A stretch of 64,000 nucleotides of DNA from Candidatus Kapaibacterium sp. (lineage in GTDB: Bacteria; Bacteroidota; Ignavibacteria; Kapaibacteriales; UBA2268), in NCBI GenBank assembly GCA_963665665.1, contig OY762428.1, forward strand, positions 2,048,001-2,112,000, read 5' to 3'. The translations under genes and the position numbers were made by a program. Below are positions 23,949-39,304 of the stretch, one piece after another; position 1 is the first letter of the stretch, and each line of letters begins with the position of its first letter. The notes under the pieces were generated by a model. That model had not been told where the DNA came from, ran no database searches, and was given only the letters and a program-made list of their open reading frames with translations.

Positions 23949-26723
23949 TTAATTCTCAATGATAATAACATAACCCCTGCTGTACTTCGATACCGGATCG
24001 AGCCATTTGCCTTCCTTCATCAGGTCGAATTCCATAAAATATTTGCCGCCAAGTTCAGGCACAACAAAGTTATATTCAACTTCCGAAACTGATAATGGCG
24101 TAAATGCCCTGGGCTGTGATTCATATATAATTTTTCTGGTGGCAAAATCCCTGAGCCTGATATTTAATGAAACATCATTTCCAAGTGATCTCATAAGGTC
24201 AAAAATATCGAAATTGAATTCAACAGTATCCCCGGGTGAGAAATTAAATTCCGGCAGCTTGAATATCGGGTCAAGGACTATGTCATAATCCTGCCAGGGG
24301 AAGAAATCAAGTGATTCTAATGACTTGGGCAGCCTTTTGCCCTGTATCTGTACGGAATCAACCTTTATTCCTATAAGTTTTTTCTTTTTATTTCTTTGCA
24401 GGTCTCCGAAGAATTCGATATTCAGCACGGGGGGAATCTTCTTCATCTTGAAATCTATTTTAAATTCCCATTCCCCCGGCCGCATATCATAGTTAAAGAC
24501 CTCTTCCTTGTTTATCTTTACTATCATATTTTGCTTGATCTTGTTGTTGTTCGTTACTTTCAGCCAGAGCGCTGTTGCCGTGTCGTTCGGGCGTAGCGGC
24601 ATGGTAATATTTGCACTGCCGTTTATCCAGCGATGTTCGTAAAAGCCCTTAGTTAGAGTTCCATAAAACGAAGTATCCAGCAGGTCGCGGTTCAGGTATG
24701 ACGGGGCAAGAGCCACCAGTCCCTGGTCTGCCCTGCTGTTCTTCAGCCACAGGTAATCATCGCTGTCAAATTCCTTTGCGATAAGGAATGCAGCATTGTT
24801 TTTTAAGTTATATTCCGGATTATTTGTGAGCAATACAGGGCTGTCAGAAGTGTCATTTTTAATCGTAATAAATTCAGCTTTTAATTCCGGGCACTGATAT
24901 TGGTAATTAAATACGTTGGGAGAATTTTTGGTAGCAAGGTCTATTGCCAAATTGTTCTCAGCTACCCCGGATACTCGTAGAGCATTTGTAATAATATTTC
25001 TTTCCAGGCGATTCTGATGGTGATATTGAATAACATAAATATATGTGACTGCCGAAAATGCAATGAACACAAGCCCCATGGCCGGAAAAGCAACATAAGG
25101 CAGCTTTTTGCCAAGAAAACCGACAAATAAATAACCCGCCAGCATGAAAGCTGTGAAAATCATTATATTTATTGTTCCGAGCGCAGAACGCAACGGGAAG
25201 AATGACATGAAGTTTCTGAAAGAAGGTTCCGCTTCGATAATATTTCCGTAAGTGGAAAGCGGCAGGATAACAGATATTGCAATAATCACAAATGCTGCCA
25301 GATGTATCTTCCAGTTAAAGAAAGCTTTTCTATCAACAATACCGTAAAGGGCAAAGGCAAATACAGGAGCCAGGAAAACCTCTGCGTAACGGCCATAGAA
25401 GAACCTGTCCGGACGGTAATCCATATCGGTAATACCGAGGTTGGTAATAATAAAAAGCATTCCGAACACATTCAGTATCAGGTACATTAGCGCAACGCTG
25501 CCGGGATCTTTCAGCAGTTCCTGCCATTTCATTTCTGATTTGGTTGCCATATAATAAACCATGTATGCAATGCCAAAGGCAAAAAAACCGAAAGTGGCGA
25601 CATTCAGGTAATAAATTTTACCACTAACGTTTATAACCCATTTCCATAGTGAATCCAGGATAAAATCAATGAAATCCGGGCCGGGAATAACAGCATAAGT
25701 CATTCCGAGAAATATAGCGAGGAATATCATCAGCTTTATCAGGTCTTTCCAGTTGAATTTGCCTTTAAAAGTCAATAATACAACAAATGCTGATTGAATA
25801 AGCAGCAAAGCAAGTCCGATCATTATTGTCGTTGAATTATAACGCAGCAGAAAGGCTGATACAATGCCGGTGATTGATAGATTTATATAATGCAGGTTGT
25901 GTTTTTTTGGAAGGAACATTCCGGAGAGAACAGCCATGATTACTATCAGAAGGTCAATCCTCCCAAAAAGCTGCTCAATTATCTGCTCAATTGAATTTTG
26001 CTCGCCGTGCATCAGGCTGCTGAGCTGCTCACCGTAGGATAAGGAAAAAATCAGAACAAAGAAATTTATTATCAGAACGGTTGAACCGAAACTGGCATCC
26101 AGAGACTTACGGCGCATCAGGAATATCAGGAATACGAAATTAAGGAATATAATAGATATACCCCTGACATGAATTGTGTAAATCAGTACGGAAACAAGTG
26201 CAAATAAAACAGTCGATACCCAGTCCTGCTTTTTATAAAAATATGCAAATGAAAAGATGAGCAATGCAAAAAATGCCGGGGTCACGGCATCAGTCCATGC
26301 CATCTTTGATTGCAGGAAAAATGCCGGGTAAAGCGAGATAACGAAGGACAGAAGCAGAGACCTGTTTGTCTTAAGTTTAAAAATATGATGCAGTAAAAGA
26401 AAAAGCCATATTACGATGGTAGCGGAAAGTATGCCGTTAATTACCAGCGCCGCTTTGTAAATCATAGCGGGATCGCTGAAAAGCATGAATGCGGGAGAGA
26501 TTATCATGGAATATCCAAAACCACTGGGCTGTCCGCCGCCGGGATAAACGGGCATGGAACCGCCCGCAATATAACGCGCTTTGCCAAGGTATCCGAATTC
26601 ATCGCCTGCTACAACAGGGGTTTCAAGGCTGAGTCCCATAATAATATGTGTTGCTGCAAGAATAATATATGCTGTAAAGATTACGATAAATGTTTTTCTG
26701 TTTTCTTTCATGCCTGATTTCAT
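23949..26723 (-). CDS. large polytopic membrane protein, GT-C (ArnT/PMT-like) glycosyltransferase suspected, with C-terminal soluble beta domains
   Basis: Many TM segments; GDEFGY acidic motif in first loop; RYAEVF. The ORF extends to 26783, so the start is uncertain. Confidence 0.6.
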   Translation of the reverse strand: MKSGMKENRKTFIVIFTAYIILAATHIIMGLSLETPVVAGDEFGYLGKARYIAGGSMPVYPGGGQPSGFGYSMIISPAFMLFSDPAMIYKAALVINGILSATIVIWLFLLLHHIFKLKTNRSLLLSFVISLYPAFFLQSKMAWTDAVTPAFFALLIFSFAYFYKKQDWVSTVLFALVSVLIYTIHVRGISIIFLNFVFLIFLMRRKSLDASFGSTVLIINFFVLIFSLSYGEQLSSLMHGEQNSIEQIIEQLFGRIDLLIVIMAVLSGMFLPKKHNLHYINLSITGIVSAFLLRYNSTTIMIGLALLLIQSAFVVLLTFKGKFNWKDLIKLMIFLAIFLGMTYAVIPGPDFIDFILDSLWKWVINVSGKIYYLNVATFGFFAFGIAYMVYYMATKSEMKWQELLKDPGSVALMYLILNVFGMLFIITNLGITDMDYRPDRFFYGRYAEVFLAPVFAFALYGIVDRKAFFNWKIHLAAFVIIAISVILPLSTYGNIIEAEPSFRNFMSFFPLRSALGTINIMIFTAFMLAGYLFVGFLGKKLPYVAFPAMGLVFIAFSAVTYIYVIQYHHQNRLERNIITNALRVSGVAENNLAIDLATKNSPNVFNYQYQCPELKAEFITIKNDTSDSPVLLTNNPEYNLKNNAAFLIAKEFDSDDYLWLKNSRADQGLVALAPSYLNRDLLDTSFYGTLTKGFYEHRWINGSANITMPLRPNDTATALWLKVTNNNKIKQNMIVKINKEEVFNYDMRPGEWEFKIDFKMKKIPPVLNIEFFGDLQRNKKKKLIGIKVDSVQIQGKRLPKSLESLDFFPWQDYDIVLDPIFKLPEFNFSPGDTVEFNFDIFDLMRSLGNDVSLNIRLRDFATRKIIYESQPRAFTPLSVSEVEYNFVVPELGGKYFMEFDLMKEGKWLDPVSKYSRGYVIIIEN

Positions 26724-26949
26724 TCTGAATAGGATTACATAATTCCAAACGCAAAGATAAGAATTTAATATATGATAATACAAATTGAATCTTGTGAATA
26801 TGCAAACAACTATATTCTGATGTTAGTAATTTTATTCTTGTATTTTCATATAAAAGCATTAAATTTGACCTTTAGGATGGAACAATTTGGACTTTGGTTT
26901 AAAATTTTTCATATTTTGTTTCACTAAACTTTGGTTTTCGTTATAGTTA

Positions 26950-27483
26950 ATGGATGAATGCTTACATACGGGGGGGCAGGCTGATACCCGTGAATTGAAC
27001 TGGTATCCGTTTTATACGCGCAGCCGCCATGAGAAAAAAGCCTATCAAAACCTTATTCGTGAAGGTTATAATGCTTATTTGCCTCTAAAGAAATCTGTAA
27101 GGCAGTGGAGCGACCGCAGGAAAATTGTGGAAACGCCGCTGATTTCTTCCTATGTATTTGCCAAAACAACGAGAGACCAACTTTACAACATAGTAAAACT
27201 CGACGGAATAGCACGTTACATCAGCTTTGCCGGCCAGCCTGCCACGATTCGGGACAAAGAAATTGATATTATCCGAAAAGCCTTGACTGAGGATACGGAA
27301 CTGGAAGTTAAGGATGGTATGCTGGGCGAGGGCCGCGAAGTGAAATTAAACGCCGGGCCTTTCATGGGATACTCCGGAAAGGTAATAAAACTAAAAGGGA
27401 AAAACAGGCTTGTGATTGAGATTGAAGCCTTGAATAAAACTTTGTTGATTACAGTTGAAAGAAATCAACTGTCGGGAAGATAA
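26950..27483 (+). CDS. upxY: UpxY-family transcription antiterminator (NusG/RfaH paralog)
   Basis: WYPFYTRSRHEKK, AYLPL....RQWSDRRKIVETPLISSYVF, KOW motif GPFMGYSG; lies upstream of a polysaccharide locus. Confidence 0.93.
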   Translation: MDECLHTGGQADTRELNWYPFYTRSRHEKKAYQNLIREGYNAYLPLKKSVRQWSDRRKIVETPLISSYVFAKTTRDQLYNIVKLDGIARYISFAGQPATIRDKEIDIIRKALTEDTELEVKDGMLGEGREVKLNAGPFMGYSGKVIKLKGKNRLVIEIEALNKTLLITVERNQLSGR

Positions 27484-27550
27484 ACCCGAATCAACCGCTT
27501 ATTATAATAAATATTGCGGTATACTTATAAAATACAATGATTTGTCCGTA

Positions 27551-27580
27551 GGCCACAGATGTGACTGAAAGGGCTGTGCC
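27551..27580 (+). promoter_or_regulatory. candidate cis-acting hairpin (ops/JUMPstart-like) downstream of upxY
   Basis: Stem-loop GG(C)CACAG-ATGTGACTGAAAGGG-CTGTGCC, unique in the window, at the head of the array/operon leader. Confidence 0.4.
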
Positions 27581-27630
27581 TTGGAAAGAGGGAAAGAAAA
27601 CACTTTGACACTTGCAAAATTGAAATCTAA

Positions 27631-27895
27631 AGTTCCCCTCTTGGGGGGTGGCGAGCGCAGCGAGACGGGGTGGATTCTTAATTGAAAATTTGAAATTGAT
27701 ATTTAATAATGCTGTATAGCTTAAAAATATTCATAGATGTCATCCTGAGCGAAAGCGAAGGATCCATTCTTCAACAATATCAGCAAAGAAAAAATGCATT
27801 CTTCAGTCCCAAGCTCAGGAAGCCTGCCCCAACCAGTCGGGAAATGACAAAAGGGTTGTTGATGGAAAATGAAGAAGAACCGGACATAAATATAT
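27631..27895 (+). repeat. composite spacer S0 (modules A-B-C-E)
   Basis: A: TTCCCCTCTTGGGGGGTGGCGAGCGCAGCGAGACGGGGTGGA. B: AATGCTGTATAGCTTAAAAATATT. C: GTCATCCTGAGCGAAAGCGAAGGATCCATTCTTCAAC...ATTCTTCAGTC...AATGACAA. E: GAAAATGAAGAAGAA. Confidence 0.9.
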
Positions 27896-28192
27896 ATGAG
27901 TAAGTCTGATAAGAATATAAAACTGATAGAATTTATTGACAGGAATAGACGGCTTTTCTGGTATATTCCTGATGATGCCATGCATGACATAAGCGACGAA
28001 CTGATACTGGAAAATACTCTTAATTATGCAGGCCTTGATTCTATTGTGGAATATTTCAATATTATCGGACTAAGTAGGGCAGCCGGTATATTCAAGTCCT
28101 TGCACGGCAGAAAAAAGCACAATATCTCTCCCGAAATTTATAATTTTTTTTCACTGGTATTTAAAAGGTATGTACCCGGATATTCTAAATAA
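27896..28192 (+). CDS. cassette 1 antitoxin-like protein (DUF6922-like)
   Basis: LFWY...IL.NTLNY pattern; overlaps the downstream AbiEii gene. Confidence 0.7.
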   Translation: MSKSDKNIKLIEFIDRNRRLFWYIPDDAMHDISDELILENTLNYAGLDSIVEYFNIIGLSRAAGIFKSLHGRKKHNISPEIYNFFSLVFKRYVPGYSK

Positions 28193-28784
28193 AAAACAAA
28201 TTGAATTACTTGAATTATGTAAAGTTTTCAAAAGGGAATTTTATCTTGCCGGAGGTACTGCTATTGCTCTTCAGATTGGACACAGATCGTCAATTGATTT
28301 CGACTTTTTTAAAAAGTCTGCAATCAATCCAAAAAAAGTTATCGACAAAATTGAAAAAGCAGGTTACGATCACTCAATTGTCCGCGCAACATCTGACCAG
28401 CTTGATGTTTTTGTTAACGATGTAAAACTTACATTCCTGCATTATCCATTTGAAGTTGAAGCAAAACAGAAAATGGATAATTATTTCAGGACGCCGGAAT
28501 TGATTTCCCTGGCAGCCCTGAAGGCTTATGCTCTTGGCAGGCGTTCGAAGTGGAAAGATTATGTCGATCTTTATATTTTGATAAACAGGCATTTTTCAAT
28601 TAATGATATATCCCTTAAAGCCGGAGAAATTTTCGGTCAGCTTTTTTCAGAAAAACTTTTTCGAAGTCAGCTATCCTATTTTGATGATATTGATTATTCC
28701 GAACCAGTGATATGGAGCGGCCATGAATTTTCGGCTGATGAGATAAAAGCTTTTTTAGAAGAAAAATCAACCGAAATATTTTAA
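28170..28784 (+). CDS. cassette 1 AbiEii/AbiGii-family nucleotidyltransferase toxin
   Basis: FYLAGGTAIALQIGHRSSIDFDFF, K..A...R...KDYVDLY. Confidence 0.9.
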   Translation: MYPDILNKKQIELLELCKVFKREFYLAGGTAIALQIGHRSSIDFDFFKKSAINPKKVIDKIEKAGYDHSIVRATSDQLDVFVNDVKLTFLHYPFEVEAKQKMDNYFRTPELISLAALKAYALGRRSKWKDYVDLYILINRHFSINDISLKAGEIFGQLFSEKLFRSQLSYFDDIDYSEPVIWSGHEFSADEIKAFLEEKSTEIF

Positions 28785-28821
28785 TTTCTAATGTATAAAA
28801 TGCCCCATAAGGGATTGACTA

Positions 28822-29045
28822 TTTAATTAGAAATTGATAATTAAAAATGCTTCATAGCTTAAATAAATCGAGAAATGGAAGTATCCTCCCCCTTAATCCC
28901 CCTCCAAAGGGGGACATCCCAGAATTCCCATCGAGAGGTGGATTGCGAAGGATCCATTCTTCAACAGTATCAGCAGGAAAAGATGGATTCTTCAGTCGCA
29001 AGCTCCTTCAGAATGACAAGAGGGTTCTTCAAATGAAAATTAAAA
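28822..29045 (+). repeat. composite spacer S1 (B-D-A'-C)
   Basis: AATGCTTCATAGCTTAAA; CCTTAATCCCCCTCCAAAGGGGG at 28891-28913; GATGGATTCTTCAGTCGCAAGCTCCTTCAGAATGACAAGAGG. Confidence 0.93.
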
Positions 29046-29078
29046 ATAATAACAACCGAAAATGAATAACCAAGACTG

Positions 29079-29402
29079 ATGGGCAGAAAAAATAAAAAGA
29101 AAAAATATTACGATGAGCCTCTGAGCAAGGAAATGATCAGTAATATTATACATGAGGCTGTAGAAAAGCAGATAAAGGAGAAGAATCCTCCGGAGGTTGC
29201 GAGAACTTATTACAGGCTGATAGTTATGGGATTGAGTTCCAAAGATGCAAAATCACAAATAATACGGGCTTTTTCAATTGAACTCAGGCAAAGTAAAAAA
29301 TCGGACTATGCCTGGGAAAAAGAATCATATATAGAAATACTTGAAATGCTCCCCATGGAAGATGAGGAATTATATGCTCTTTACCATAGTTTCGAGGACT
29401 AA
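29079..29402 (+). CDS. cassette 2 hypothetical protein
   Basis: 107-aa ORF; 'IHEAVEKQI....PPEV..TY.RL...G.S..DA' resembles small DUF1841-like helical proteins (weak). Confidence 0.6.
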   Translation: MGRKNKKKKYYDEPLSKEMISNIIHEAVEKQIKEKNPPEVARTYYRLIVMGLSSKDAKSQIIRAFSIELRQSKKSDYAWEKESYIEILEMLPMEDEELYALYHSFED

Positions 29403-29455
29403 AGAAATAATCACGATAAGAGTGCAAAGTAAATTAAGCAACTAAGCTATCAATA

Positions 29456-29764
29456 ATGGAAAACGTTGAACAAATAAAGAATATACTTGAAAAAATCTTC
29501 TGGGATATGAACCCCGGGGAGAAAAACAGAAATATCAATATTATTTTGTCGGACAAAAAATCAGTCCTGTCCGATAAACGAATACTGATAAAATTGCTTA
29601 CGGGGCTTGCATGGTACGACCTGCAAAAACTTTTCACGCAGGAAGAATTAAAATCTGCCTTAAATTATGATGTTATTGACAAATTATTCCCGGTTTCCTT
29701 AAGAAATTATTATAATGATGCCGCAAAATTACTACGAAAATATTCTTTACCCTCTGCAGGATAA
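29456..29764 (+). CDS. cassette 2 antitoxin-like protein
   Basis: IFWD motif like the cassette 1 partner; overlaps the AbiEii gene. Confidence 0.65.
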   Translation: MENVEQIKNILEKIFWDMNPGEKNRNINIILSDKKSVLSDKRILIKLLTGLAWYDLQKLFTQEELKSALNYDVIDKLFPVSLRNYYNDAAKLLRKYSLPSAG

Positions 29765-30404
29765 AATTTTAAAATTGGTAAGCTTAGCCAAAACTGATTT
29801 CTACCTGACAGGCGGAACTGCTCTTAGCAGGGTTTACCTAAATCACAGGTATTCAGACGATTTGGATTTTTTTGTTAATAACAGCCCTGATTTTAAGCCG
29901 GCCGTGGAAGCAGTTCTAAATATTTTTGATGATGGGGAAGTTATCTATAAGCCAATTTCAACAAATAACGGATTTGTCAGGTTGGTAATTAATGATAAAA
30001 ACTGCAATCTGAAAATTGACTTTGTTAACGATATTTCTTTCAGAGCGGGTGAAGTTGGTGAATGGAAGAAATACCCGAGAGTAGATAATATGCTGAATAT
30101 ATTATCTAATAAGATTACTGCACTGACGCGCTACGAAACTAAGGATATCGTGGATATTGTCCATATTGCTGTCAAAACAGAATTTAGCTGGGAAGAAATC
30201 TTCAACGATGCCCTCCAAAAAGATGTTTGGGCAAACCCGGTGGAAGCTGCAAAGATTCTTGATGCTTTCCCAACAGGAAAACTTAAAGAAATAAAATGGA
30301 TAGCTGATAGTCCGGATGAAACGATCTTTTCGGATTATATTTCCCAAATTATTCAGGATATTCTTTCAGGCAAAGACAATAGCCTTTTTGGAATTTGCAA
30401 ATAA
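29715..30404 (+). CDS. cassette 2 AbiEii-family nucleotidyltransferase toxin
   Basis: FYLTGGTALSRVYLNHRYSDDLDFF, KIDFV, NKITAL.R...KDIVDI. Confidence 0.9.
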   Translation: MMPQNYYENILYPLQDKILKLVSLAKTDFYLTGGTALSRVYLNHRYSDDLDFFVNNSPDFKPAVEAVLNIFDDGEVIYKPISTNNGFVRLVINDKNCNLKIDFVNDISFRAGEVGEWKKYPRVDNMLNILSNKITALTRYETKDIVDIVHIAVKTEFSWEEIFNDALQKDVWANPVEAAKILDAFPTGKLKEIKWIADSPDETIFSDYISQIIQDILSGKDNSLFGICK

Positions 30405-30601
30405 AAAATTCCCATCGAGGGGTGTCCGAAGGGCGGGGTGGATTCTTCAATTAAATAATTAACAATGCTTCATAGCTTAAAAAAATTGATAAATAGTAGT
30501 ATCCTTCCCCTTAATCCCCCTCCAAAGGGGGACATCCCAGAATTCCCATCGAGGGGTGGATTTATTATTGAAAATGAAGAAGAAATAAAACATAAATTCA
30601 A
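30405..30601 (+). repeat. composite spacer S2 (A-B-D-A'-E)
   Basis: AAATTCCCATCGAGGGGTGTCCGAAGGGCGGGGTGGA; AATGCTTCATAGCTTAAAA; CCTTAATCCCCCTCCAAAGGGGG at 30509-30531. Confidence 0.92.
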
Positions 30602-30796
30602 ATGATAGATAAATCAGCAATAAATATTACAAGCAAAAACAACGATACATCTGAAATTGAATATTGGAGCCGTAAAACGCCGATATTGCGGATTCTTGCT
30701 TTAGAAGAATTGAGAAAAGAATATATTAAGTGGAAACATGATTCAGAGCCGGGATTTCAAAGAGTTTATAAAATTATTAAACTCAAAGAAAGTTAA
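30602..30796 (+). CDS. cassette 3 small partner protein (putative antitoxin)
   Basis: 64 aa, 'EYW...TP..RI.ALE.LR'; overlaps the NTase gene. Confidence 0.65.
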   Translation: MIDKSAINITSKNNDTSEIEYWSRKTPILRILALEELRKEYIKWKHDSEPGFQRVYKIIKLKES

Positions 30797-31217
30797 ATAT
30801 ATGATAATTGGCGGCTATGCTGTTGCTTACCATGGATATCCCAGATATACGGGCGATATAGATTTTTGGATTGATAATAGCAGGGAAAATGCCAGAAGAA
30901 TTATTGCGGTTCTTAACGATTTTGGATTCGATTCACTTGAGATAAAACCTGATGATCTTGCTAATCCTGATAATGTAATTCAACTTGGATTCCCTCCGAA
31001 CAGGATAGATTTGATTTGCGGTATTGAGGGGATTGATTATAACAATGCTTATGATAATTCTGAAATAACCGAAATTGATGGCGAAAAGATCAGGTTTATA
31101 AATCTTGACGATTTGATAACCACCAAGAGTATTAGCGCCCGAAAACAGGATCTGGCCGATATTGATAAACTTGAAAAGATTCGCCTGATGAGGAAAAACC
31201 TTAATGGAAAGAGTTAA
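30738..31217 (+). CDS. cassette 3 nucleotidyltransferase (DUF6036-like)
   Basis: YMIIGGYAVAYHGYPRYTGDIDF, RIDL, K....R.QDLAD. Confidence 0.85.
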   Translation: MIQSRDFKEFIKLLNSKKVKYMIIGGYAVAYHGYPRYTGDIDFWIDNSRENARRIIAVLNDFGFDSLEIKPDDLANPDNVIQLGFPPNRIDLICGIEGIDYNNAYDNSEITEIDGEKIRFINLDDLITTKSISARKQDLADIDKLEKIRLMRKNLNGKS

Positions 31218-31285
31218 TTAAAATAAACACGCAAAGGCGCTGAGAACTCAAAGAAAAAAATTCACCTTGTATGTTTGTAAAGACA

Positions 31286-31467
31286 GATAATTAAAAATGC
31301 TTCATAACTTAAAAATATTCAAAAATGGAAGTATCCTCCCCCTTAATCCCCCTCCAAAGGGGGACAATCCAGAATTCCTATCAAGGGGTGAATGCGAAGG
31401 ATACATTCTTCAACACTATCAGCAGGAAAAGATGGATTCTTCAGTCGCAAGCTCCCTCTGAATGACA
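31286..31467 (+). repeat. composite spacer S3 (B-D-A'-C)
   Basis: AATGCTTCATAACTTAAAAATATT; module D at 31341-31363; GATGGATTCTTCAGTCGCAAGCTCC. Confidence 0.92.
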
Positions 31468-31518
31468 TTTACACACTTGTTCCATTAGCTTCATAGTTCT
31501 GCTAAGTACATAATAAAA

Positions 31519-32673
31519 ATGCAAGTCACAGAAAAATATATTGACAGTCTCCTTAATCAGGGCGAAAACAGCGGGGTAGAGTTTAAATCCGCTGATGTGC
31601 GGGTCGAATCCCTTGCAAAGGAAATCGTGGCTTTTGCAAATACTTCCGGCGGTACTGTTTTGTTGGGCGTGGATGATGATTCTACTATTTCAGGCCTCTT
31701 GCCAGATAAGAATTATGAAGAATGGGTTATGAATATTGCCCGCAACAATATAATCCCGGCTATTCAGCTTGATTACAGCGAACACGAGAAAAATAGAAAA
31801 ACAATTGCCATTATCAATGTTCCTAAGGGCAAGGACAAACCCTACCAGGCAAATGACAATAAATTTTATCTCAGGGTTGGATCTACAAACAGGGTTGCCA
31901 CTATAAATGAACTACTCAGGTTGTTTCAGGAGAGCGGCGCTTTTCATTATGATATTACCAGCGTGGATGGAAGCAGCCCCAAAGCTCTGAATTTCTTCAA
32001 ACTATCCGGATATTTCGGGGCCTATAAAATTGATTTCGACAATTTACCGGATACAGAAAAAATCACACTTTTGCAAAATGCAGATATTCTAAATGAAGAA
32101 AGCAGCTGCACGGTGGCAGGAATGCTAATATTTGGTATCAATCCGCAGCAATACATTCCTTTTGCAAGAATTTCCTTTGCTCATTACAAAAGTCCGGAAA
32201 TCAGCTCTGACCTTCTCAATAAGAAAAATATCGGGGGCGGCCTGTCGGAGCAAATTGATAATACAGTTGCATTGATTGCCAATTCTATACCCGAGCCGTC
32301 CGAAATAGTCGGCACAAAACGAAAAAGCAGCGTTGCAAAATATCCTGTGAAAGTATTCAGGGAATTGATAGTAAATGCCTGCTGCCACAGAAACTATTCC
32401 ATACTTGGATCGGCAATCAGAGTGTTTTTGTTTTCGGATAGGTTGGAAGTAATAAGCCCCGGCAAATTACCCAATACGGTAAGCATAGAAAAATTAAAAG
32501 CCGGGGTTTCCTACGCCGCGAACCCGGTAATAGTAAAATTCATGGAAAATCTGAACTATATAGACAAGCTCGGCAGGGGGCTGCCCATGGTTTGGCAGGA
32601 AGCCGTGAAGCTAAATAAAAAAGTAATTTTTGAAGAAATTGGCCAGGAATTTAAAGTAACTCTGCAACTATGA
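31519..32673 (+). CDS. cassette 4 AlbA_2/Schlafen domain + HATPase_c_4 (RecG C-terminal-like) protein
   Basis: GENSGVEFK, AFANTSGG..LLGVDDD, FRELIVNACCHRNY, SPGKLP, NP, KLGRG. Confidence 0.9.
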   Translation: MQVTEKYIDSLLNQGENSGVEFKSADVRVESLAKEIVAFANTSGGTVLLGVDDDSTISGLLPDKNYEEWVMNIARNNIIPAIQLDYSEHEKNRKTIAIINVPKGKDKPYQANDNKFYLRVGSTNRVATINELLRLFQESGAFHYDITSVDGSSPKALNFFKLSGYFGAYKIDFDNLPDTEKITLLQNADILNEESSCTVAGMLIFGINPQQYIPFARISFAHYKSPEISSDLLNKKNIGGGLSEQIDNTVALIANSIPEPSEIVGTKRKSSVAKYPVKVFRELIVNACCHRNYSILGSAIRVFLFSDRLEVISPGKLPNTVSIEKLKAGVSYAANPVIVKFMENLNYIDKLGRGLPMVWQEAVKLNKKVIFEEIGQEFKVTLQL

Positions 32674-32870
32674 TAAAATTCCCCTCTCTAAGGGTGGGCT
32701 TTTTTAATTGAAAATGGAAAATTAATAATTGAAAATGCTTCATAGCTTAAAAAATTGAGAAATAGTAGTATCCTCCCCCTTAATCCCCCTCCAAAGGGGG
32801 TACAATCCAAATTCCCCTCACTAAGGGTGGCAAGCGCAGCGAGACGGGGTGGACTTCTTTAAATTGAATT
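32674..32870 (+). repeat. composite spacer S4 (A-B-D-A)
   Basis: AAATTCCCCTCTCTAAGGGTGG; module B; module D at 32778-32800; AAATTCCCCTCACTAAGGGTGGCAAGCGCAGCGAGACGGGGTGGA. Confidence 0.92.
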
Positions 32871-32889
32871 CGACAAATAGAATTAGATA

Positions 32890-33429
32890 ATGGAAATAGT
32901 CAGATTCGAAAATATTGAAGATAAGATAATAATCCTGAGAGACCGGCAGGTTATCATCGATAGCGATGTAGCTGAACTCTATGGCGTGGAAACAAGGGAT
33001 ATAAATAAAGCAGTTAAGAATAATCCTGAAAAATTTCCAGAAGGATATGTTTTTGAATTGAATGAAAATGAAAAGCGTGAGCTGGTGGAAAATTTCCACC
33101 ACCTTGATAAACTCAAATATTCCAAAGCATTACCCAAGGCCTTTACTGAAAAGGGTATGTATATGCTGGCTACTATCCTGAAAAGCGCCAGGGCAACTGC
33201 CACAACTATAGCAATAATCGAAGCATTTGCAAAAATTCGCGAGCTGGGAAAGAATATCAGGGAAATGGCTGAAATGGAAAGCGAAAACGAAAAACGCTCG
33301 CTGATGAGGCGCAGCGGTGAAATTATATCAGAAATATTTGACGACGACCTGACAATTGGCGAAACGGAAACCAGTATTGAAATTAACTTCGCCGTTCTGA
33401 AACTAAAGCATACAGTTAAAAGAAAATAA
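32890..33429 (+). CDS. cassette 5 ORF6N (KilA-N-related) DNA-binding protein, copy 1
   Basis: LR..QVIIDSDVAELYGVET..IN.AV.NN..KFP..Y.FEL, PKAFTEKG.YMLATILKS. Confidence 0.92.
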   Translation: MEIVRFENIEDKIIILRDRQVIIDSDVAELYGVETRDINKAVKNNPEKFPEGYVFELNENEKRELVENFHHLDKLKYSKALPKAFTEKGMYMLATILKSARATATTIAIIEAFAKIRELGKNIREMAEMESENEKRSLMRRSGEIISEIFDDDLTIGETETSIEINFAVLKLKHTVKRK

Positions 33430-33443
33430 ATATGCTGAGAAAG

Positions 33444-33716
33444 AAAAATTCCCCTCTCTAAGGGTGGCAGCGCAGCTGACGGGGTGGACTCCTAATTGAA
33501 AATTGAAAATTAAACAATGCTACATAACTTAAAAATATTCGGAAATGGAAGTATCCTCCCCCTTAATCCCCCTCCAAAGGGGGACAATCTAAAATTCCCA
33601 TCGAGGGGTGGATCACAAAGGATCCATTCTTCAACATCATCTGCAGAGAAAGCATGGATTCTTCAGTCGCAAGCTCCTTCAGAATGACAAGAGGCTTCTT
33701 TAATTGACAATGGAAA
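33444..33716 (+). repeat. composite spacer S5 (A-B-D-A'-C)
   Basis: Modules A, B, D and C all present; D at 33561-33583; ends TAATTGACAATGGAAA. Confidence 0.93.
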
Positions 33717-33776
33717 AAATATCCTGAATTATAGAGCGTTCCTTAACTAAAACAGTTAATTACACCGGAGAAAATC

Positions 33777-33986
33777 ATGTTGGCAATAAATGGAATATAC
33801 GAAGACGGAAAGATCAATCCTTTGCAGGATATTCCTGTGAATGAGAAGTATATTGTCAGGATTACCTTCCTGAAGCCTTTGGCCAATGCAGATAAAGAAA
33901 ATGCTGAATCCTTCCTCCGGGCTGCCGAAAGCTCTCTTGATTTCTGGGATAATGAAATTGACGATGAAATCTGGAACAATGTATAA
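33777..33986 (+). CDS. cassette 6 antitoxin (AF2212/DUF104-like N-terminus)
   Basis: AINGIYEDGKI.PL N-terminus and FWDNEIDDEIW acidic C-terminus, typical of MazF partners. Confidence 0.75.
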   Translation: MLAINGIYEDGKINPLQDIPVNEKYIVRITFLKPLANADKENAESFLRAAESSLDFWDNEIDDEIWNNV

Positions 33987-34317
33987 ATCCGGCGATATAC
34001 TTCTTATACCTATCCCTTTTACTGATCTGAGCAGCGCAAAAAAAAGGCCCTGCATAGTAATTTCAGGAACTAATTACAACCGGGTTACCGAAGATATAAT
34101 TGTAATGGCAATAACTTCCAAACTCAGCGATAAAAAATATTCGGTCAGGATTACAAATGACGACCTTGCCTATGGTATGCTACCAACAACTTCGCAAATA
34201 AGAGTTGATAAAATTTATACAATATCCCAAAATATTGTGCAAAGAAAATTAGCTTCGGCAAATACTGAGATTAATGATAAAATATTTGAATTATTTGATG
34301 AGATAATTAGTAATTGA
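33979..34317 (+). CDS. cassette 6 PemK/MazF-family toxin
   Basis: GDILLIPIPFTDLSSAKKRPCIVIS, AITS, S.IRVDKI; ATG at 33979 overlaps the antitoxin stop. Confidence 0.92.
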   Translation: MYKSGDILLIPIPFTDLSSAKKRPCIVISGTNYNRVTEDIIVMAITSKLSDKKYSVRITNDDLAYGMLPTTSQIRVDKIYTISQNIVQRKLASANTEINDKIFELFDEIISN

Positions 34318-34319
34318 CA

Positions 34320-34859
34320 ATGGAAATAGTCAGATTCGAAAATATTGAAGATAAGATAATAATCCTGAGAGGCCGGCAGGTTATTATCGACAGCGATGTT
34401 GCCGATCTCTATGGCGTGGAAACCAAAAGGATCAACGAGGCTGTTTCCAATAATCCTGAAAAATTTCCCGAAGGATATGTTTTTGAGTTAGATGAAAAGG
34501 AAAAACGTAAACTGGTCGAAAATTTCGACCACCTCGATAAACTTAAATATTCCAAAGCATTACCCAAGGCCTTTACTGAAAAGGGCATGTATATGCTGGC
34601 TACCATTCTGAAAAGCGCCAGGGCAACTGCTACTACTATAGCAATAATCGAGGCGTTTGCTAAAATTCGCGAGCTGGGAAAGAATATCAGGGAAATGGGC
34701 GAAATGGAAAGCGAAAACGAAAAACGCTCCCTGATGAGGCGCAGTGGTGAAATTATCTCAGAAATATTTGACGACGACCTGACAATTGGCGAAACGGAAA
34801 CCAGTATAGAAATTAACTTCGCCGTACTGAAGCTAAAGCATACAGTTAAAAGAAAATAA
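34320..34859 (+). CDS. ORF6N protein, copy 2
   Basis: Near-identical paralog of 32890..33429; ATG at 34320. Confidence 0.92.
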   Translation: MEIVRFENIEDKIIILRGRQVIIDSDVADLYGVETKRINEAVSNNPEKFPEGYVFELDEKEKRKLVENFDHLDKLKYSKALPKAFTEKGMYMLATILKSARATATTIAIIEAFAKIRELGKNIREMGEMESENEKRSLMRRSGEIISEIFDDDLTIGETETSIEINFAVLKLKHTVKRK

Positions 34860-34873
34860 ATATGCTGAGAAAG

Positions 34874-35163
34874 AAAAATTCCCCTCTCTAAGGGTGGCAG
34901 CGCGAAGGATCCCGATAAATCGGGACGGGCTGGGGTGGACTCCTAATTGAAAATTGAAAACTAAACAATGCTTTATAGTTTAAAAATATTGAGAAATGTC
35001 ATCCTGAGCGTAGCAAAGGATCCATTCTTCAACACTATCAGCAGAAAAAGATGGATTCTTCAGTCGCAAGCTCCAGAAGCCTGCTCACTGCCTGCCCCGA
35101 TAAATCGGGGACCAGTCGGGGAATGACAAGAGGGTTCTTTAATTGAAAATTGAAAATCGATAA
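34874..35163 (+). repeat. composite spacer S6 (A-B-C) with nested micro-palindromes
   Basis: Modules A, B and C, with CCCGATAAATCGGG inserts at 34910-34925 and 35095-35110. Confidence 0.9.
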
Positions 35164-35346
35164 ATGGCAATGGAAAGAATAGTAAATATATCAGATAATC
35201 ATGAACAAGCCAGGGAATATGAAATTCTTCAGCAGTTAAAAATGACGTCGATTGAAAGACAAATGGCCGCCCGGGAATTGAAAAAGAAATTTTACGGCGA
35301 AAAAACGCCTGATGTACGTAAAAGCCGGGCCTGGAAAGTTTCATGA
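35164..35346 (+). CDS. cassette 7 small partner protein
   Basis: 60 aa, 'MT..ER..AA.ELK'; ATGA overlap with the NTase gene. Confidence 0.65.
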   Translation: MAMERIVNISDNHEQAREYEILQQLKMTSIERQMAARELKKKFYGEKTPDVRKSRAWKVS

Positions 35347-35828
35347 TATTTTCTGATGATATATTGGAATTTTTATATCTGCTGAATAAGCATAATGTAA
35401 AATATATGATCGTAGGGGGCGAGGCTGTTATTTATTATGGCTATGCAAGGCTTACCGGCGATATTGATATTTATTATGATCTTAGTAAAGAGAACTGTAC
35501 TAAATTATTTTCATGCCTTAATGAATTCTGGGATAATGATATCCCCGGATTAAATCAGACGGAAGAATTAGAAAGGGATGGCATTATTATTCAATTTGGC
35601 TTGCCACCAAACCGGATTGATTTGATCAACAATATCGACGGAGTTAATTTTAATGAGGCATGGACCAATAAAGAATCCCTGAATATCGAGGATAAATCAC
35701 TATCTTTTGTGATTAATTATATTGGAATAGATGATCTTATTAAAAACAAGAAATATTCCGGAAGAAATAAAGATATGGATGATCTGGATTATTTGACTAG
35801 AAGAACTGGTCGAAAATTTCGACCTTAA
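35343..35828 (+). CDS. cassette 7 nucleotidyltransferase (DUF6036-like), paralog of cassette 3
   Basis: YMIVGGEAVIYYGYARLTGDIDI, PPNRIDL, K...GR.KD..D. Confidence 0.85.
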   Translation: MIFSDDILEFLYLLNKHNVKYMIVGGEAVIYYGYARLTGDIDIYYDLSKENCTKLFSCLNEFWDNDIPGLNQTEELERDGIIIQFGLPPNRIDLINNIDGVNFNEAWTNKESLNIEDKSLSFVINYIGIDDLIKNKKYSGRNKDMDDLDYLTRRTGRKFRP

Positions 35829-35999
35829 TCCCCCTCCAAAGGGGGACATTCTAAAATTCTCATCGAGGGGTGGATCACGAAGTCTCCATTCTTCAACATC
35901 ATCAGCAAAAAAAGATGGATTCTTCAGTCGCGTGCTCCTTCAGAATGACAAGAGGGTTCTTTAATTGACAATGACGAGAAATCGGATATAAATTCAAAT
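35823..35999 (+). repeat. composite spacer S7 (truncated D-A'-C-E)
   Basis: Starts directly at module D (35823-35845) and lacks A and B; module C intact. Confidence 0.9.
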
Positions 36000-36033
36000 A
36001 TTCAAGCAGCTACTTAACTGAAACGTATAAACC

Positions 36034-36333
36034 ATGAATGCCGAAGAACTATATAATAAATCAATCGATTATATAAAAGAAGAACTGAAGAAAATGCTTC
36101 CGCCAGATACATGTGTTTATCTTTATGGTTCGTCGGCAAGGGGCGATCGCGGCCATAGCTCGGATATTGATATCGCGATTGAATCCAAAAATATTAACAG
36201 CAGGCTTATCGCGGAATTATGTGATAAATTTGATGATTCTTTCGTTCCATACAAAGTAGATATTGTTGATCTGGCCAAAGCCGACGACAATTTTAAGAGC
36301 ATAATCTTTCGGGATGCAGTGAAATGGATGTGA
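36034..36333 (+). CDS. cassette 8 minimal nucleotidyltransferase (MNT antitoxin)
   Basis: YLYGSSARGD....SDIDIA, KVDIV. Confidence 0.92.
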   Translation: MNAEELYNKSIDYIKEELKKMLPPDTCVYLYGSSARGDRGHSSDIDIAIESKNINSRLIAELCDKFDDSFVPYKVDIVDLAKADDNFKSIIFRDAVKWM

Positions 36334-36728
36334 AACTAAACCAGTTAACCAAAGCTGTCAGCAGCCTGAACGATCTTGCAAAAAAGATAAACAATCTGAC
36401 AACTGAAGATGAGATAATCCTTGACGGTTTGCAGAACGGCCTGGCGCAGAAATTTGAATATACAATTGAACTGTTCTGGAAAACAGTAAAAAAATACCTG
36501 CTTAAATATGAAGGAATTGACACCAAATCTCCCAAGCAGGCTATAAAAGAATTTTATAAGAGCGGCAATATCAGCGAAGATCAATATTTGCTTCTAATAC
36601 GCGCTATCGACGACCGCAACGTTTTAAGCCATGTTTATAACGAAAATGATTTCAGCAGGATAATTGATTCTATTTCCGATTATACTGCCCTCATCTTTGA
36701 AATTACTGATCTGCTGAGTAAGAAATAA
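36324..36728 (+). CDS. cassette 8 HEPN protein (HI0074 family)
   Basis: QKFEYTIELFWK, SPKQAIKE, Rx4H motif DRNVLSHVY. Confidence 0.92.
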   Translation: MDVKLNQLTKAVSSLNDLAKKINNLTTEDEIILDGLQNGLAQKFEYTIELFWKTVKKYLLKYEGIDTKSPKQAIKEFYKSGNISEDQYLLLIRAIDDRNVLSHVYNENDFSRIIDSISDYTALIFEITDLLSKK

Positions 36729-36737
36729 CCGCAAAGA

Positions 36738-37123
36738 AAAAATTCCCCTTGAGGGGTGGGATCTTTAATTAAAAATGGAAAATTGATAATTAAAAATGCT
36801 TCATAGCTTAAAAAAATTAGCGATAGTAGTCTCCCCCCCCTTAATCCCCCTCCAAAGGGGGAAATTCCAGAATTCACATCAAGTGGTTGACCGCGAAGTA
36901 TTTATTCTTCAACACTATCAGCAGGAAAAGATGGATTCTTCAGTCGCAAGCTCCTTCAGAATGACAAGAGGCTTCTTTAATTAAAAATTGAAATTGATAA
37001 TTAACTATGCTGTATTGCTTAAAAATATTGAGAAATGTCATCCCCCGACAAGCCGAGGGCAGGCTGAGCAAATGCGAAGGATCCATTCTTCAACACTATC
37101 AGCAGGGAAAGATGGATTCTTCA
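36738..37123 (+). repeat. double composite spacer S8 (A-B-D-A'-C-B-C partial)
   Basis: Module D at 36839-36861; two B and two C modules in tandem with no gene between them. Confidence 0.92.
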
Positions 37124-37197
37124 CTAACCACTAATCACTAACCACCAAACTTAATTCATGAACAACTCTCAACTTTCCACTATCAACTATAAACTAT
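37122..37197 (+). repeat. degenerate 7-mer tandem repeats
   Basis: CACTAAC-CACTAAT-CACTAAC and CAACTCT-CAACTTT-CCACTAT-CAACTAT-AAACTAT. Confidence 0.7.
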
Positions 37198-37352
37198 CTA
37201 AGGATTTCACCCTCCCCCGCTACCGCCAGTATCTGGAAGCGATAAAGGAGAAGTATGAGAACGTGGTTTTATTCAGGGAGTATATGGCTAATCCAATATC
37301 TTCATTCTGTATGATAAGGCATGATGTGGGTTTTAAACAATTTTTATTTTAG
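37158..37352 (+). pseudogene. 5' fragment of polysaccharide deacetylase-like gene
   Basis: DFTLPRYRQYL...MIRHDV matches the N-terminus of 60324..61085 (DFTLSNYKKL...WRHDVE); stops just after RHDV. Confidence 0.7.
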
Positions 37353-37360
37353 GATAAATT

Positions 37361-39304
37361 ATGTGCGGAATATTTGGAATTTCAATAAAAGAAGAATCAA
37401 AAATTGATAAGAGTCAATTTAGTAATTTATTGAAAAACCTTTTTATTTATTCAGAATCCAGAGGCAAAGAAGCTTCAGGATTTGCATTCAGTAATAATAC
37501 AGAAATTAAGGTTTTTAAAACAAAACATCCGGCATCACATTTAATTAAATCCAAAGAATTTGAAAATAATCTTGATTGGCTACTCGAATCCAACAGTTTT
37601 AAAACTGCTATTGGCCACTCCAGGTTAGTTACAAACGGTAACGAAGAATTGAATATTAATAATCAGCCTGTTATTAAAAATGGAATGGTTGGTATTCATA
37701 ATGGCATTGTGGTAAATGTTGATGAATTATGGAAAAAATATTCTGATATTAAAAGGACTTCAGAGCTGGACAGCGAAGTAATTCTTGCTCTTTTAAAGAG
37801 AAATTTAATTAATCAGGATATTTTGGAAGCCAGAAATAAAACTTTCGATGATATATATGGTATGACTAATGTTGCAGTTTTGTTCGAAAATTATCAAAAT
37901 CTATTGATAAGTACAAACAATGGGTCACTATATTATTATTCTGATAATGATATCTTTATTTTTGCTTCGGAAGCTTTTATTCTAAAAAATGTTGTAATAG
38001 AATATTCTGAAAATCCAGAAATTTTACACGTAGAACCCGGGAAAACAATTTTATTGAATCTTTTAAACCTAAGTGATAATACTCAAAATATTTCTAACGG
38101 AATAATTAAACAAATTACTGATCTGACAAATAGTAAATCAGATATTGTGTTTAAAAAAGAAACTCAAATATTTATTGTTAAAAACAGTTTTTTTGAAGAA
38201 TTTGATAAAAATGCTGCCAGAGTATCCCTGTTAAAACGTTGTGAGAAGACAATATTACCGCAAACCTTTCCTTTTATTGAATTCGATGAAAACGGTATTT
38301 CAAATTTTGCTAATAATTATAGAGAACAAAATCTTCAGGGTAAAGAACAGTTACTGGAATTTGTTGAACCATACAGAAAATCAAACGGCAAACCGGACTG
38401 CCTGGTAGCTTTTAGCGGTGGCAGGGACAGTAGTTATGGTCTACATTATATTAAAGAAGAATTAGGCCTCAACCCAATTGCTTATTCTTATGACTGGGGT
38501 ATGATAACTGATCTTGCCCGGCGAAATCAGGCAAGATTATGCGGGAAACTCGGAGTTGAACATATTCTGATTTCGGCTGATATCAGGAAGAAAAGGGAAA
38601 ATATCAGAAAAAATGTAAGCGCCTGGCTGAAAAGGCCTCATTTAGGTACAGTACCTCTTTTTATGGCTGGCGACAAGCAATATTTCTATTGGGCAAATGA
38701 ATTGATGAAGCAAAATAATATCAAACTTGCTTTCCTTTGTGAAAACATGCTTGAAACAACTAATTTTAAATCAGGTTTTTGTGGCATAAAGCCTGTTTTT
38801 GATAAAGATCATACTTATAGCTTATCAATTAAAAATAAATTTAAAATGCTGAGTTTTTACGGAAAAGAATTTCTACTAAATCCCGGATATCTGAATTCCT
38901 CAATGCTTGATACTCTTGATGCCTTTAAATCTTATTATGTAATGGACCATCAGTTTGTGAATTTATATAATTATATTCTATGGGAAGAAAATCAGGTAGA
39001 TAAAATTTTGCTTGGCCACTATGATTGGGAAATTGCTGAAGATACTGAAACAACCTGGAGAATAGGAGACGGAACAGCCCCATTTTATAACTACATATAT
39101 TATACTGTTGCCGGATTTTCAGAAAATGATACTTTCCGTTCGAATCAGATCATGGAAAATATGATAAGCCGTAAGGAAGCCCTCAGACTTGCAGAACGAG
39201 ATAATAAACCAAGGTTTGAATCAATAAAATGGTATTGTGATACAATCGGAATTGACTTCGAATCGACAATTAACAGAATTAATCAGATAAAGAAGCTGTA
39301 TTAA
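37361..39304 (+). CDS. class II glutamine amidotransferase fused to PP-loop N-acetyl-sugar amidotransferase domain
   Basis: MCGIFG, GHSRL, HNG, DSE; SGGRDSS PP-loop. Confidence 0.85.
   Translation: MCGIFGISIKEESKIDKSQFSNLLKNLFIYSESRGKEASGFAFSNNTEIKVFKTKHPASHLIKSKEFENNLDWLLESNSFKTAIGHSRLVTNGNEELNINNQPVIKNGMVGIHNGIVVNVDELWKKYSDIKRTSELDSEVILALLKRNLINQDILEARNKTFDDIYGMTNVAVLFENYQNLLISTNNGSLYYYSDNDIFIFASEAFILKNVVIEYSENPEILHVEPGKTILLNLLNLSDNTQNISNGIIKQITDLTNSKSDIVFKKETQIFIVKNSFFEEFDKNAARVSLLKRCEKTILPQTFPFIEFDENGISNFANNYREQNLQGKEQLLEFVEPYRKSNGKPDCLVAFSGGRDSSYGLHYIKEELGLNPIAYSYDWGMITDLARRNQARLCGKLGVEHILISADIRKKRENIRKNVSAWLKRPHLGTVPLFMAGDKQYFYWANELMKQNNIKLAFLCENMLETTNFKSGFCGIKPVFDKDHTYSLSIKNKFKMLSFYGKEFLLNPGYLNSSMLDTLDAFKSYYVMDHQFVNLYNYILWEENQVDKILLGHYDWEIAEDTETTWRIGDGTAPFYNYIYYTVAGFSENDTFRSNQIMENMISRKEALRLAERDNKPRFESIKWYCDTIGIDFESTINRINQIKKLY

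Follow-up and report, generated by a model that had tools for sequence, protein, structure and literature searches.

A cassette array in the leader of an UpxY-type polysaccharide locus

The complete genome of Candidatus Kapaibacterium sp. (GenBank assembly GCA_963665665.1; 5.46 Mb in a single contig, OY762428.1) carries at 2.075-2.085 Mb an array of small genes, mostly of toxin-antitoxin (TA) or defence type, that are separated by mosaic repeats. Unless the genome is named, coordinates refer to the window, the 64,000-nucleotide stretch of DNA that was analysed (positions 2,048,001 to 2,112,000 of the forward strand). Eight co-directional cassettes (27896-36728) alternate with nine spacers, S0 to S8, and are flanked by a gene of the UpxY family of NusG paralogs and by an AsnB-like glycan gene. 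The array sits in the leader of the only UpxY-type locus of this genome. We interpret it as a hypervariable TA/defence island in an UpxY-antiterminated leader, rearranged by repeat-mediated recombination without a dedicated integrase, and regard the chances of this interpretation as evenly balanced. An earlier reading of the bare DNA (below, the sequence-only reading) had proposed eight cassettes and nine spacers between upxY and the polysaccharide genes, and both the gene calls, which were assigned by Pfam and NCBIfam profile searches, and the mapped repeats bear this out.

The spacers measure 412, 294, 197, 301, 216, 347, 304, 205 and 632 bp and were split by alignment into four modules. Module H is a small hairpin that starts with AAAATTCCCC and frequently has a GC-rich extension; module A is AT-rich and has TGAAAAT heptamers and a conserved core; in module W, a CCCCCTCC...GGGGG hairpin precedes an H-like part; and module P is a palindromic element of ~100 nt. 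H usually comes first, followed by A; next stands W or the left arm of P, and P and a purine-rich tail close the series. Copies of a module in different spacers are 85-97% identical, far above the similarity of the cargo. The interval 26500-38500 contains 41 direct-repeat families, for example a 62-nt unit that occurs seven times, five of them at 85-100%. On the plus strand, S0 (27484-27895) consists of a unique leader, H, A, the full palindrome P and a purine-rich tail; S1 (28785-29078) of an H-like hairpin, A, W, P and tail; S2 (30405-30601) of H, a short A, W and tail; S3 (31218-31518) of 39 nt of unique sequence, a split H start (AAAATTC), a short A, W, P and a unique tail; S4 (32674-32889) of H, A, W with a long H, and tail; S5 (33430-33776) of H, A, W, P and tail; S6 (34860-35163) of H with an insertion, A, a full P with an insertion, and tail; S7 (35829-36033) of W, the 5' part of which overlaps the preceding gene, P and tail, without A; and S8 (36729-37360) of H, A, W, P, a second A, a left-arm variant, a truncated P and ~230 nt of unique sequence.

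Repeats and genes are tightly apposed. Stop codons that abut or overlap the spacers had been noticed in the sequence-only reading, and indeed H begins 0-15 nt past the stops at 30404, 32673, 33429, 34859 and 36728, and the one at 35828 lies within W. Repeats also extend to the start codon in S0 and S2. S8, which had been described as a double spacer lacking a gene, proved to carry two A and two P modules with no credible gene among them. A 64-aa open reading frame (ORF) at 37158-37352, in the unique part of S8 before the AsnB-like gene, has no family match and could be what is left of a gene. In the spacers, ORFs of 52-72 aa begin at the ATG of module A; they were treated as non-genes because they lie wholly within repeats, and the two that were scanned matched no family.

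The four modules differ in their distribution across the genome, which was searched with nhmmer profiles (E<=0.01). Module A was found at nine sites, all in the array (next-best match E=0.6). Module W also has nine sites, seven in the array and two others at E ~0.005. A is present in 8 of the 9 spacers and W in 7, in a common order and orientation. A and W are confined to the array, and these locus-private modules are conserved at 80-95%. Module P occurs at 187 sites in the genome, nine of them in the array, and module H at 86, six of them in the array. Outside the array, P lies between tandem (99 sites), convergent (49) or divergent (21) genes or within genes (9); that is, 169 of the 178 non-array copies are intergenic, in both orientations, with convergent gaps over-represented, and in tandem contexts 55 copies run along the flanking genes and 44 are opposed to them. 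Composites of H, a linker and P are present elsewhere in the genome as well, with linkers other than module A, which fills this place in the array. P and H are ordinary intergenic repeats resembling repetitive extragenic palindromic sequences (REPs) and bacterial interspersed mosaic elements (BIMEs). The spacers had been called REP-like as a whole; this applies to P and H, which are found genome-wide, and fails for A and W, which are found in the array only. The full composite spacer with A and W was not found between ordinary genes genome-wide.

Even the common modules are concentrated here. Within its 9.9 kb the array has nine P sites where 0.32 would be expected from the remaining genome (Poisson 8e-11) and six H sites where 0.15 would be expected (1e-8), and it is the densest 10-kb window of the genome for both. 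All nine array copies of P lie on the plus strand (two-sided binomial 0.004). One composite variant was multiplied locally, in a single orientation. A separate clade of array P copies was considered and rejected, the smallest split that holds all seven usable copies comprising 123 of 159 tips; since the array copies form no clade, it is A and W, together with order and orientation, that argue for local multiplication. Module A, with its heptamer repeats, might be a site for recombination or for binding of a regulator. A degenerate A pattern has eight occurrences in this genome; among 253 others of the order, six contain it a single time each, which is chance level. The exact A core was found in public metagenome contigs (10 loci) and genome contigs (11 loci), collections that may leave out records of the window's own genome, as single matches with no P, W or H adjoining.

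Differences in a close relative

None of the 30 relatives searched, all from other genera, shows conservation of the array DNA. Among public sequencing runs, three from one sample, the probable source, contain 94-96% of the words of the array, and two from another study (organism B) contain 28-34%. Contigs of the runs were compared with window positions 24000-43000. In run X4, which comes from another study, one contig aligns to 24000-28875 (88 substitutions, 10 gaps; ~98% identical). The relative in this run is 7 nt shorter at 27686, within the module A heptamers of S0, which fits slippage of a 7-nt unit.

The relative differs from the window in cassette content. An X4 contig joins 31256 directly to 32675 and omits the 1418 nt between them, namely the A-W-P modules of S3 and the AlbA_2 cassette. 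The shorter side of this joint measures 127 nt, and the two sides share no more than AAAATTC, the 7 nt with which module H starts. Because this 7-mer alone is common to them, the joint cannot be an assembler's collapse of a long repeat. In the X4 relative AAAATTC opens an intact H module; the left copy in the window leads into unrelated sequence. In a third X4 contig, sequence from within the second ORF6N gene (up to 34765) continues, after 58 other letters, at 36972 in the second half of S8, so that cassettes 7 and 8 are absent from that place in the relative. Both bridged differences have a breakpoint at a module border. Other X4 contigs differ in module make-up at matching spacers; for example, the left arm of P replaces W after cassette 1. 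The cassettes are thus not identical across relatives; the opposite was found, with breakpoints at spacer modules. The sequence-only reading had envisaged a platform that shuffles cassettes at REP-like joints. Of this, the variation of content at modules stood, whereas the shuffling itself is less secure, the two differences also fitting simple deletion.

Read cover differs among the runs. In X4, depth is low over the first ORF6N gene (0.69) and over the MNT-HEPN pair (0.28), and missing cover was not used as evidence. Run X6, small and with the same organism label, covers the array only at 28804-29497 and 33899-34122, and run X9 gave no cover. Joints in the source run X1 were discounted as repeat cross-matches, with 20-43 letters on the shorter side, all in repeats.

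Cassettes and cargo

All cassettes are read from the plus strand. Cassette 1 (27896-28784) encodes a 98-aa ORF and an AbiEii-family nucleotidyltransferase (NTase) of 204 aa (Pfam AbiEii 1.2e-12); cassette 2 (29079-30404) a 107-aa ORF, a 102-aa ORF and an AbiEii-family protein of 229 aa (Pfam AbiEii 2.1e-11); cassette 3 (30602-31217) a 64-aa ORF and, by family search, a DUF2204/DUF6036 NTase (159 aa); and cassette 4 (31519-32673) a 384-aa protein with AlbA_2 and HATPase_c_4 domains (Pfam 3.9e-24 and 1.6e-18). Cassette 5 (32890-33429) encodes an ORF6N protein of 179 aa (Pfam ORF6N 5.3e-29; PADLOC PDC-S05 1.6e-81), with 74% identity to the one encoded after upxY in G117, a genome of another genus. 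According to the family searches, cassette 6 (33777-34859) has a 69-aa ORF, a PemK/MazF-like protein (143 aa) and a second ORF6N protein (181 aa), and cassette 8 (36034-36728) an MNT protein (NTP_transf_2, 99 aa) with a HEPN-type NTase_sub_bind partner (HI0074 family, 134 aa). Cassette 7 (35164-35828) consists of a 60-aa ORF and a DUF6036 NTase (161 aa), whose last codons and stop lie inside module W. TA-type family matches with small adjacent partner genes are thus the two AbiEii proteins, PemK, NTP_transf_2 with NTase_sub_bind, and the DUF6036-type NTases. AbiEii, MazF and MNT-HEPN are established toxin-antitoxin families. That the cargo is TA- or defence-associated, as had been suggested earlier, is upheld by these family matches, such as that of ORF6N to PDC-S05, and by weaker ones of the AbiEii proteins (including that of cassette 1) to PADLOC AbiEii and of the cassette 8 MNT protein to PDC-S09.

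The cargo is diverse. The two AbiEii proteins are 28% identical and the NTases of cassettes 3 and 7 43%, and the small partner ORFs have no detectable mutual similarity. The two ORF6N genes, at 94% identity, are the sole close pair, and their duplication reaches from ~27 nt 5' of the start to ~44 nt beyond the stop. Within the genome the cargo families are almost restricted to the array. A genome-wide link of TA cargo to P and H was rejected, the other 39 repeat pairs enclosing other genes (a repetitive ~200-aa family, large proteins, DUF559 and others).

Repeat-bounded genes of other kinds occur elsewhere in this genome, which amplifies other small genes between hairpin mosaics. Three tandem DUF559 genes that are 100% identical (genome 1354482-1356566; L060:3683-5767; period 835-848 nt) have tandem 132-nt hairpin modules between them and P/H composites on either side; an ORF of 21-nt tandem repeats adjoins them. 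Two identical 160-aa ORFs at genome 1775582-1777481 are each bracketed by H/P composites and represent a repeat-bounded duplication.

The UpxY gene, its leader and the glycan locus

The locus is headed by a gene for a 177-aa UpxY-family NusG paralog (26950-27483, plus strand), which scores 144.2 bits against NF033644 (cut-off 100), has the Pfam domains NusG and KOW, and is the only such paralog in the genome apart from nusG. This score and the glycan genes downstream agree with the sequence-only reading, in which an UpxY gene headed a polysaccharide locus. Upstream of the first repeat module lies a conserved leader motif, GATGTGACTGAAAGGGCTGTGCCTTGG (27558-27587, plus strand), which is single-copy in the genome. 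The motif GATGTGACYGAAAGGGCTGTGCC at 27558-27587 also occurs 3' of upxY in 6 of 17 other loci of the family (<=5 substitutions in 20), at L040:1795-1822 and, in the oriented sequences, in L053, L045, L041, L054 and L049. Judged by this conservation, it may be a candidate cis-element for the recruitment of UpxY. An Rfam search (E<=1) found no JUMPstart or other known leader, and no upxZ-like partner was identified at the locus.

The spacers were also inspected for signals. Taken whole, they fold no better than shuffled sequences (z -0.90 and -0.77). A crude consensus scan, which is no proof of function, gave one sense-strand terminator-like site within the spacers (30546), and in the same scan the H hairpins were terminator-like on the antisense strand only. 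A scan for sigma-70 promoters yielded 45 sites against 36.6 +/- 5.1 in shuffles, with a consensus that is not applicable to this bacterial group. Module W gave seven matches to the Rfam family whalefall-1 (RF01762), a motif known from whale-fall metagenomes, and was rejected as such an RNA, the matches being sub-threshold (18.8-32.4 bits vs 37) and on the minus strand.

Every gene from 26950 to 39304 is carried by the plus strand. The first glycan-biosynthesis gene, GATase/AsnB-like by family search (647 aa, 37361-39304, plus strand), is followed by genes for an epimerase, glycosyltransferases, DegT, MBOAT and PGA_cap. The glycan locus extends to the window end, and its GC content of 0.28 is below that of genome (0.386) and array (0.375). 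Within it, an IS3-type transposase (rve, HTH_21) at 50266-51111 coincides with a GC spike (0.40 vs ~0.27 around). Divergent from upxY is a 944-aa ORF without a Pfam match (23949-26783, minus strand). Farther upstream, flagellin and FliD genes (15105-17969) imply that the organism has flagella, an unusual trait in the group from which the definition of UpxY comes.

upxY loci in other genera of the family

Of 130 genomes of the family, 17, among them the present one, have UpxY genes above the curated cut-off, and 17 loci from the 16 others were examined; five of these contigs end <1.5 kb past upxY. Five of the 17 loci have TA- or defence-type families co-directional downstream. In G117, genes for ORF6N, MNT and a HEPN-type subunit stand directly after the leader. 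G015 has an MNT gene and then the start of a HEPN-like ORF, where its contig ends. G148 has an AlbA_2-HATPase_c_4-HTH gene directly after the leader and, further on, a relative of the 102-aa ORF (36% identity). G006 has a weak HepT-like ORF, another relative of the 102-aa ORF (24% identity) and, among the glycan genes, a PIN pair, and G124 has DUF559. Three other UpxY loci have opposite-strand neighbours, and in the remaining loci the scanned ORFs match glycan or transport families (25 of 48 families listed).

Gene content points to repeated recruitment of the same kinds of genes after upxY in this family. That the MNT-HEPN pairs of three genera have no detectable likeness favours repeated acquisition. 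A leader segment of 58 nt that includes the motif is present in G148, with 56 of 58 positions identical, on both sides of the AlbA_2 gene (L049, oriented 732-789 and 2268-2326); the leader there encloses the AlbA_2 cassette, with one copy of leader sequence to each side. G117 has hairpin modules of similar style between its TA and glycan genes (L053, oriented 2284-3147), where a run of ATTTTCT heptamers, recalling TGAAAAT of module A on the other strand, broke the assembly (run of N).

Recombinases and known repeat systems

The genes that usually accompany gene cassettes or palindromic repeats were sought by profile. No tyrosine recombinase (PF00589) is encoded in the 64-kb window; the genome has ten, none within 1.54-4.02 Mb, and the nearest is ~536 kb off. 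The best match to the integron integrase (TIGR02249) reached 90.5 bits against a cut-off of 265, and such matches apparently are distant Xer-type genes. Pairs of attC cores (RYYYAAC...GTTRRRY) numbered zero in the nine spacers on both strands, against a mean of 0.43 in shuffles. These searches agree with the sequence-only reading, which had seen no IntI, Xer or attC ends, and an integron was rejected, there being no IntI, no attC core pair and no spacer fold above shuffles. A CRISPR array was rejected as well, the repeats being 200-600 bp mosaics and the 'spacers' genes; the sole match to CRISPR-type Rfam families (22 bits, E 0.56) lies inside a gene, and no search was aimed at cas genes. A REP-associated tyrosine transposase (RAYT) had not been seen in or adjoining the array, and this holds: the RAYT-like Y1_Tnp gene of the genome (155 aa, genome 1821817-1822161) is ~250 kb away. 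It is flanked by repeats of its own, of GCTCCGTAGGAGC type and CCGCCCCTACGGGGC type (genome 1821117-1822400), that are unlike the array modules. Contrary to the suggestion that such a gene might be flanked by the modules of the array, its repeats are unrelated, and a RAYT/REPtron origin was rejected. GIY-YIG and DUF559 each have five matches in the genome, none near the array. The same suggestion for these nucleases came true insofar as three DUF559 genes are flanked by P and H; these genes were rejected as a repeat-linked nuclease for the array and read as a duplication.

How the array may have arisen

In the interpretation favoured here, cassettes would be gained, lost and duplicated through recombination at the spacer repeats. 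The recombination might be homologous, or microhomology-mediated at module borders, for example at AAAATTC. Repeats of 200-300 bp that are 85-97% alike would permit unequal crossing-over and deletion without an integrase, and excised or imported units of 'cassette plus one repeat' might re-insert in the Campbell manner. The leader would be favoured as a location because UpxY-modified RNA polymerase would read through it, so that foreign small genes placed there would be expressed and tolerated. Such read-through of the leader contents by UpxY-loaded transcription would fit the activation of foreign genes by such NusG paralogs, and the accessible text of the same source lists TA systems among rfaH neighbours (PMC7593976). 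The single sense-strand terminator-like site in the spacers accords with it, within the limits of the crude scan. A tentative and rather unlikely extension is that UpxY operon leaders are integrase-free 'safe harbours' for foreign small genes, which strains exchange at flanking copies of leader or spacer sequence. Processive transcription after the UpxY motif would then let TA and defence cassettes accumulate there and, if true, the array would be a functional counterpart of the integron, with an antiterminator and repeats in place of integrase and attC.

Several observations weigh against rearrangement by repeat recombination. Contigs from the source sample tile the array at even depth but, being short-read assemblies, break in every spacer; thus, the order of the cassettes rests on the deposited assembly. 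A further X4 contig (depth 2, ~96% identical) has the 3' end of AlbA_2 joined to S4, so the X4 sample holds both forms or a second strain. With 7 nt shared, the AlbA_2 joint is not plain homologous recombination between long repeats, and it fits a site-specific or transposition event equally well; the two strain differences could also be simple deletions, and neither excision nor capture of a cassette was observed. That P and H occur genome-wide as ordinary repeats speaks against a special platform, and the array copies of P find their best matches (0.89-0.95) among non-array copies as well as among array copies. The other arrays of genes and hairpin spacers, such as the three DUF559 genes, arose by plain tandem duplication. 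No TA family was found in 12 of the 17 other UpxY loci scanned, five of those contigs being too short. Moreover, the ORF6N protein of G117 is 74-76% identical to the array copies and its UpxY 54%; better conservation of ORF6N than of UpxY across genera could mean a fixed function and not a mobile cassette.

Part of this evidence would be explained if an ordinary TA island had been invaded by REP/BIME-like repeats, with spacers that are passive and homogenised by gene conversion and strain differences that are plain deletions. The intergenic distribution of P and H genome-wide, the H-linker-P composites elsewhere and the lack of a separate clade of array P copies are in line with this, as are relatives that have TA genes after upxY without large composite spacers, and TA loci are known to vary beside REPs, as in the E. 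coli folA-apaH region with ccdO157 (described in the available part of PMC3184786). We nevertheless consider passive spacers unlikely, if well worth weighing, in view of the confinement of A and W to the array, in 8 and 7 of the 9 spacers and in constant order and orientation, the extension of repeats to stop and start codons in several cassettes, the module border at both bridged strain differences, and the leader duplication that flanks a cassette in another genus (G148). An integron-like site-specific system, in which an unlinked and unrecognised recombinase acts on a spacer core such as AAAATTC or module A, would account for the layout of co-oriented, often TA-type cassettes with a repeat abutting each stop, for the AlbA_2 difference being bounded on both sides by AAAATTC, one copy of which is the H start, and for locus-private modules conserved at 80-95%; in the wider group, the rAID-1 clusters are a case of integron-like arrays, according to the accessible portion of bioRxiv 10.1101/471110. 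Such a system appears improbable given that IntI is missing and no tyrosine recombinase lies within ~500 kb, that attC core pairs are zero vs 0.43 expected in shuffles, that the spacers do not form one stable hairpin and vary in module content (S7 being without A), and that the 7-mer is seen at one breakpoint only.

Transfer of the cassettes as single-stranded DNA by a Y1/HUH transposase, in the manner of IS200/IS605 with hairpin modules as subterminal ends, would explain why insertion occurred 3' of a short specific sequence while the same sequence closes the inserted segment. The modules are hairpins, the genome encodes the 155-aa Y1_Tnp, and REPs resemble IS200/605 ends, as stated in the accessible text of PMC3333891. 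This proposal is very improbable, resting as it does on a single breakpoint, with the Y1_Tnp gene ~250 kb off between quite different flanking repeats and none in or adjoining the array. We attach equally little credence to the view that the small genes belong to the normal make-up of UpxY glycan loci in this family, perhaps as regulators that stand where Bacteroides has UpxZ, and are not selfish or defence cargo. The recurrence of ORF6N, MNT-HEPN and AlbA_2-HATPase_c_4(-HTH) right after upxY in three other genera, the conservation of ORF6N relative to UpxY (74-76% vs 54%) and the DNA-binding-type domains of ORF6N and of the G148 AlbA_2 protein would suit such a role. However, cassette content varies between close relatives, the MNT-HEPN pairs show no sequence relationship from genus to genus, AbiEii, MazF and MNT-HEPN are TA families, and most UpxY loci of the family are without such genes.

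If repeat-mediated rearrangement in an antiterminated leader is correct, it joins processive antitermination by NusG paralogs with the mobility of defence and addiction genes, fields that usually are separate. Integron-like arrays could then arise without a dedicated recombinase, from repeats and a transcriptional context that tolerates insertions. Surface-glycan (phage receptor) loci are hot spots of exchange, and addiction modules placed at their head could affect which locus a lineage keeps; we infer that the cell or the glycan locus may benefit from the array. As such arrays break short-read assemblies, they may be under-reported in metagenome-assembled genomes.

Comparison with known systems

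A search limited to open-access full text found no description of such an array. The antiterminator leader as a site, locus-private mosaic repeats as joints and the recurrence across genera appear to be new. An integron-like layout of cassettes, REP/BIME repeats and a TA locus that varies beside a REP in E. coli were already known (for the last, the available part of PMC3184786).

Among the systems that resemble the array, sedentary integrons and CALINs are close in layout. A CALIN is a cluster of attC sites without an integrase, and attC is an imperfect palindrome with R'' (RYYYAAC) and R' (GTTRRRY) cores that forms one hairpin. As in these systems, the cassettes are co-oriented, have one to three small genes, many of them TA, and are each followed by a repeat, which abuts the stop and is more alike between cassettes than the cargo. 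Unlike them, the array has no IntI and no RYYYAAC/GTTRRRY pair. Where attC is one folded site of 60-140 nt, the spacers are multi-module mosaics of 197-632 bp with no significant overall fold, and ordinary genome-wide repeats make up part of every spacer. The rAID-1 clusters of Bacteroidales, as far as the accessible text of bioRxiv 10.1101/471110 describes them, share the long arrays with integron-like features, the small co-oriented genes, the repetitive intergenic sequence and the broad taxonomic group. They have a XerD-family recombinase at one end, whereas the window has none (PF00589), and their cargo consists of immunity genes, whereas that of the array is TA/defence-like and lies in the leader of a glycan operon.

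With REPs and BIMEs, as characterised in the available part of PMC3333891, modules P and H share the GC-rich palindromes, intergenic location, high copy number and mosaics with variable linkers. The array differs in that the RAYT-like gene is flanked by other repeats, that A and W are single-locus, and that the mosaics separate unrelated cassettes. A closer parallel for its variability is the E. coli folA-apaH region, which contains either ccdO157 or a REP and for which REPs were proposed as the cause of plasticity (available part of PMC3184786). Presence/absence polymorphism of TA genes at a REP-bearing site is common to both, but the E. coli case is a single TA locus and involves no antiterminated operon leader. 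In RfaH/UpxY-type operons, finally, a NusG paralog gene heads a polysaccharide operon as it does here, where a conserved motif follows upxY; a cassette array between the antiterminator and its targets was not found described in the accessible text of PMC7593976.

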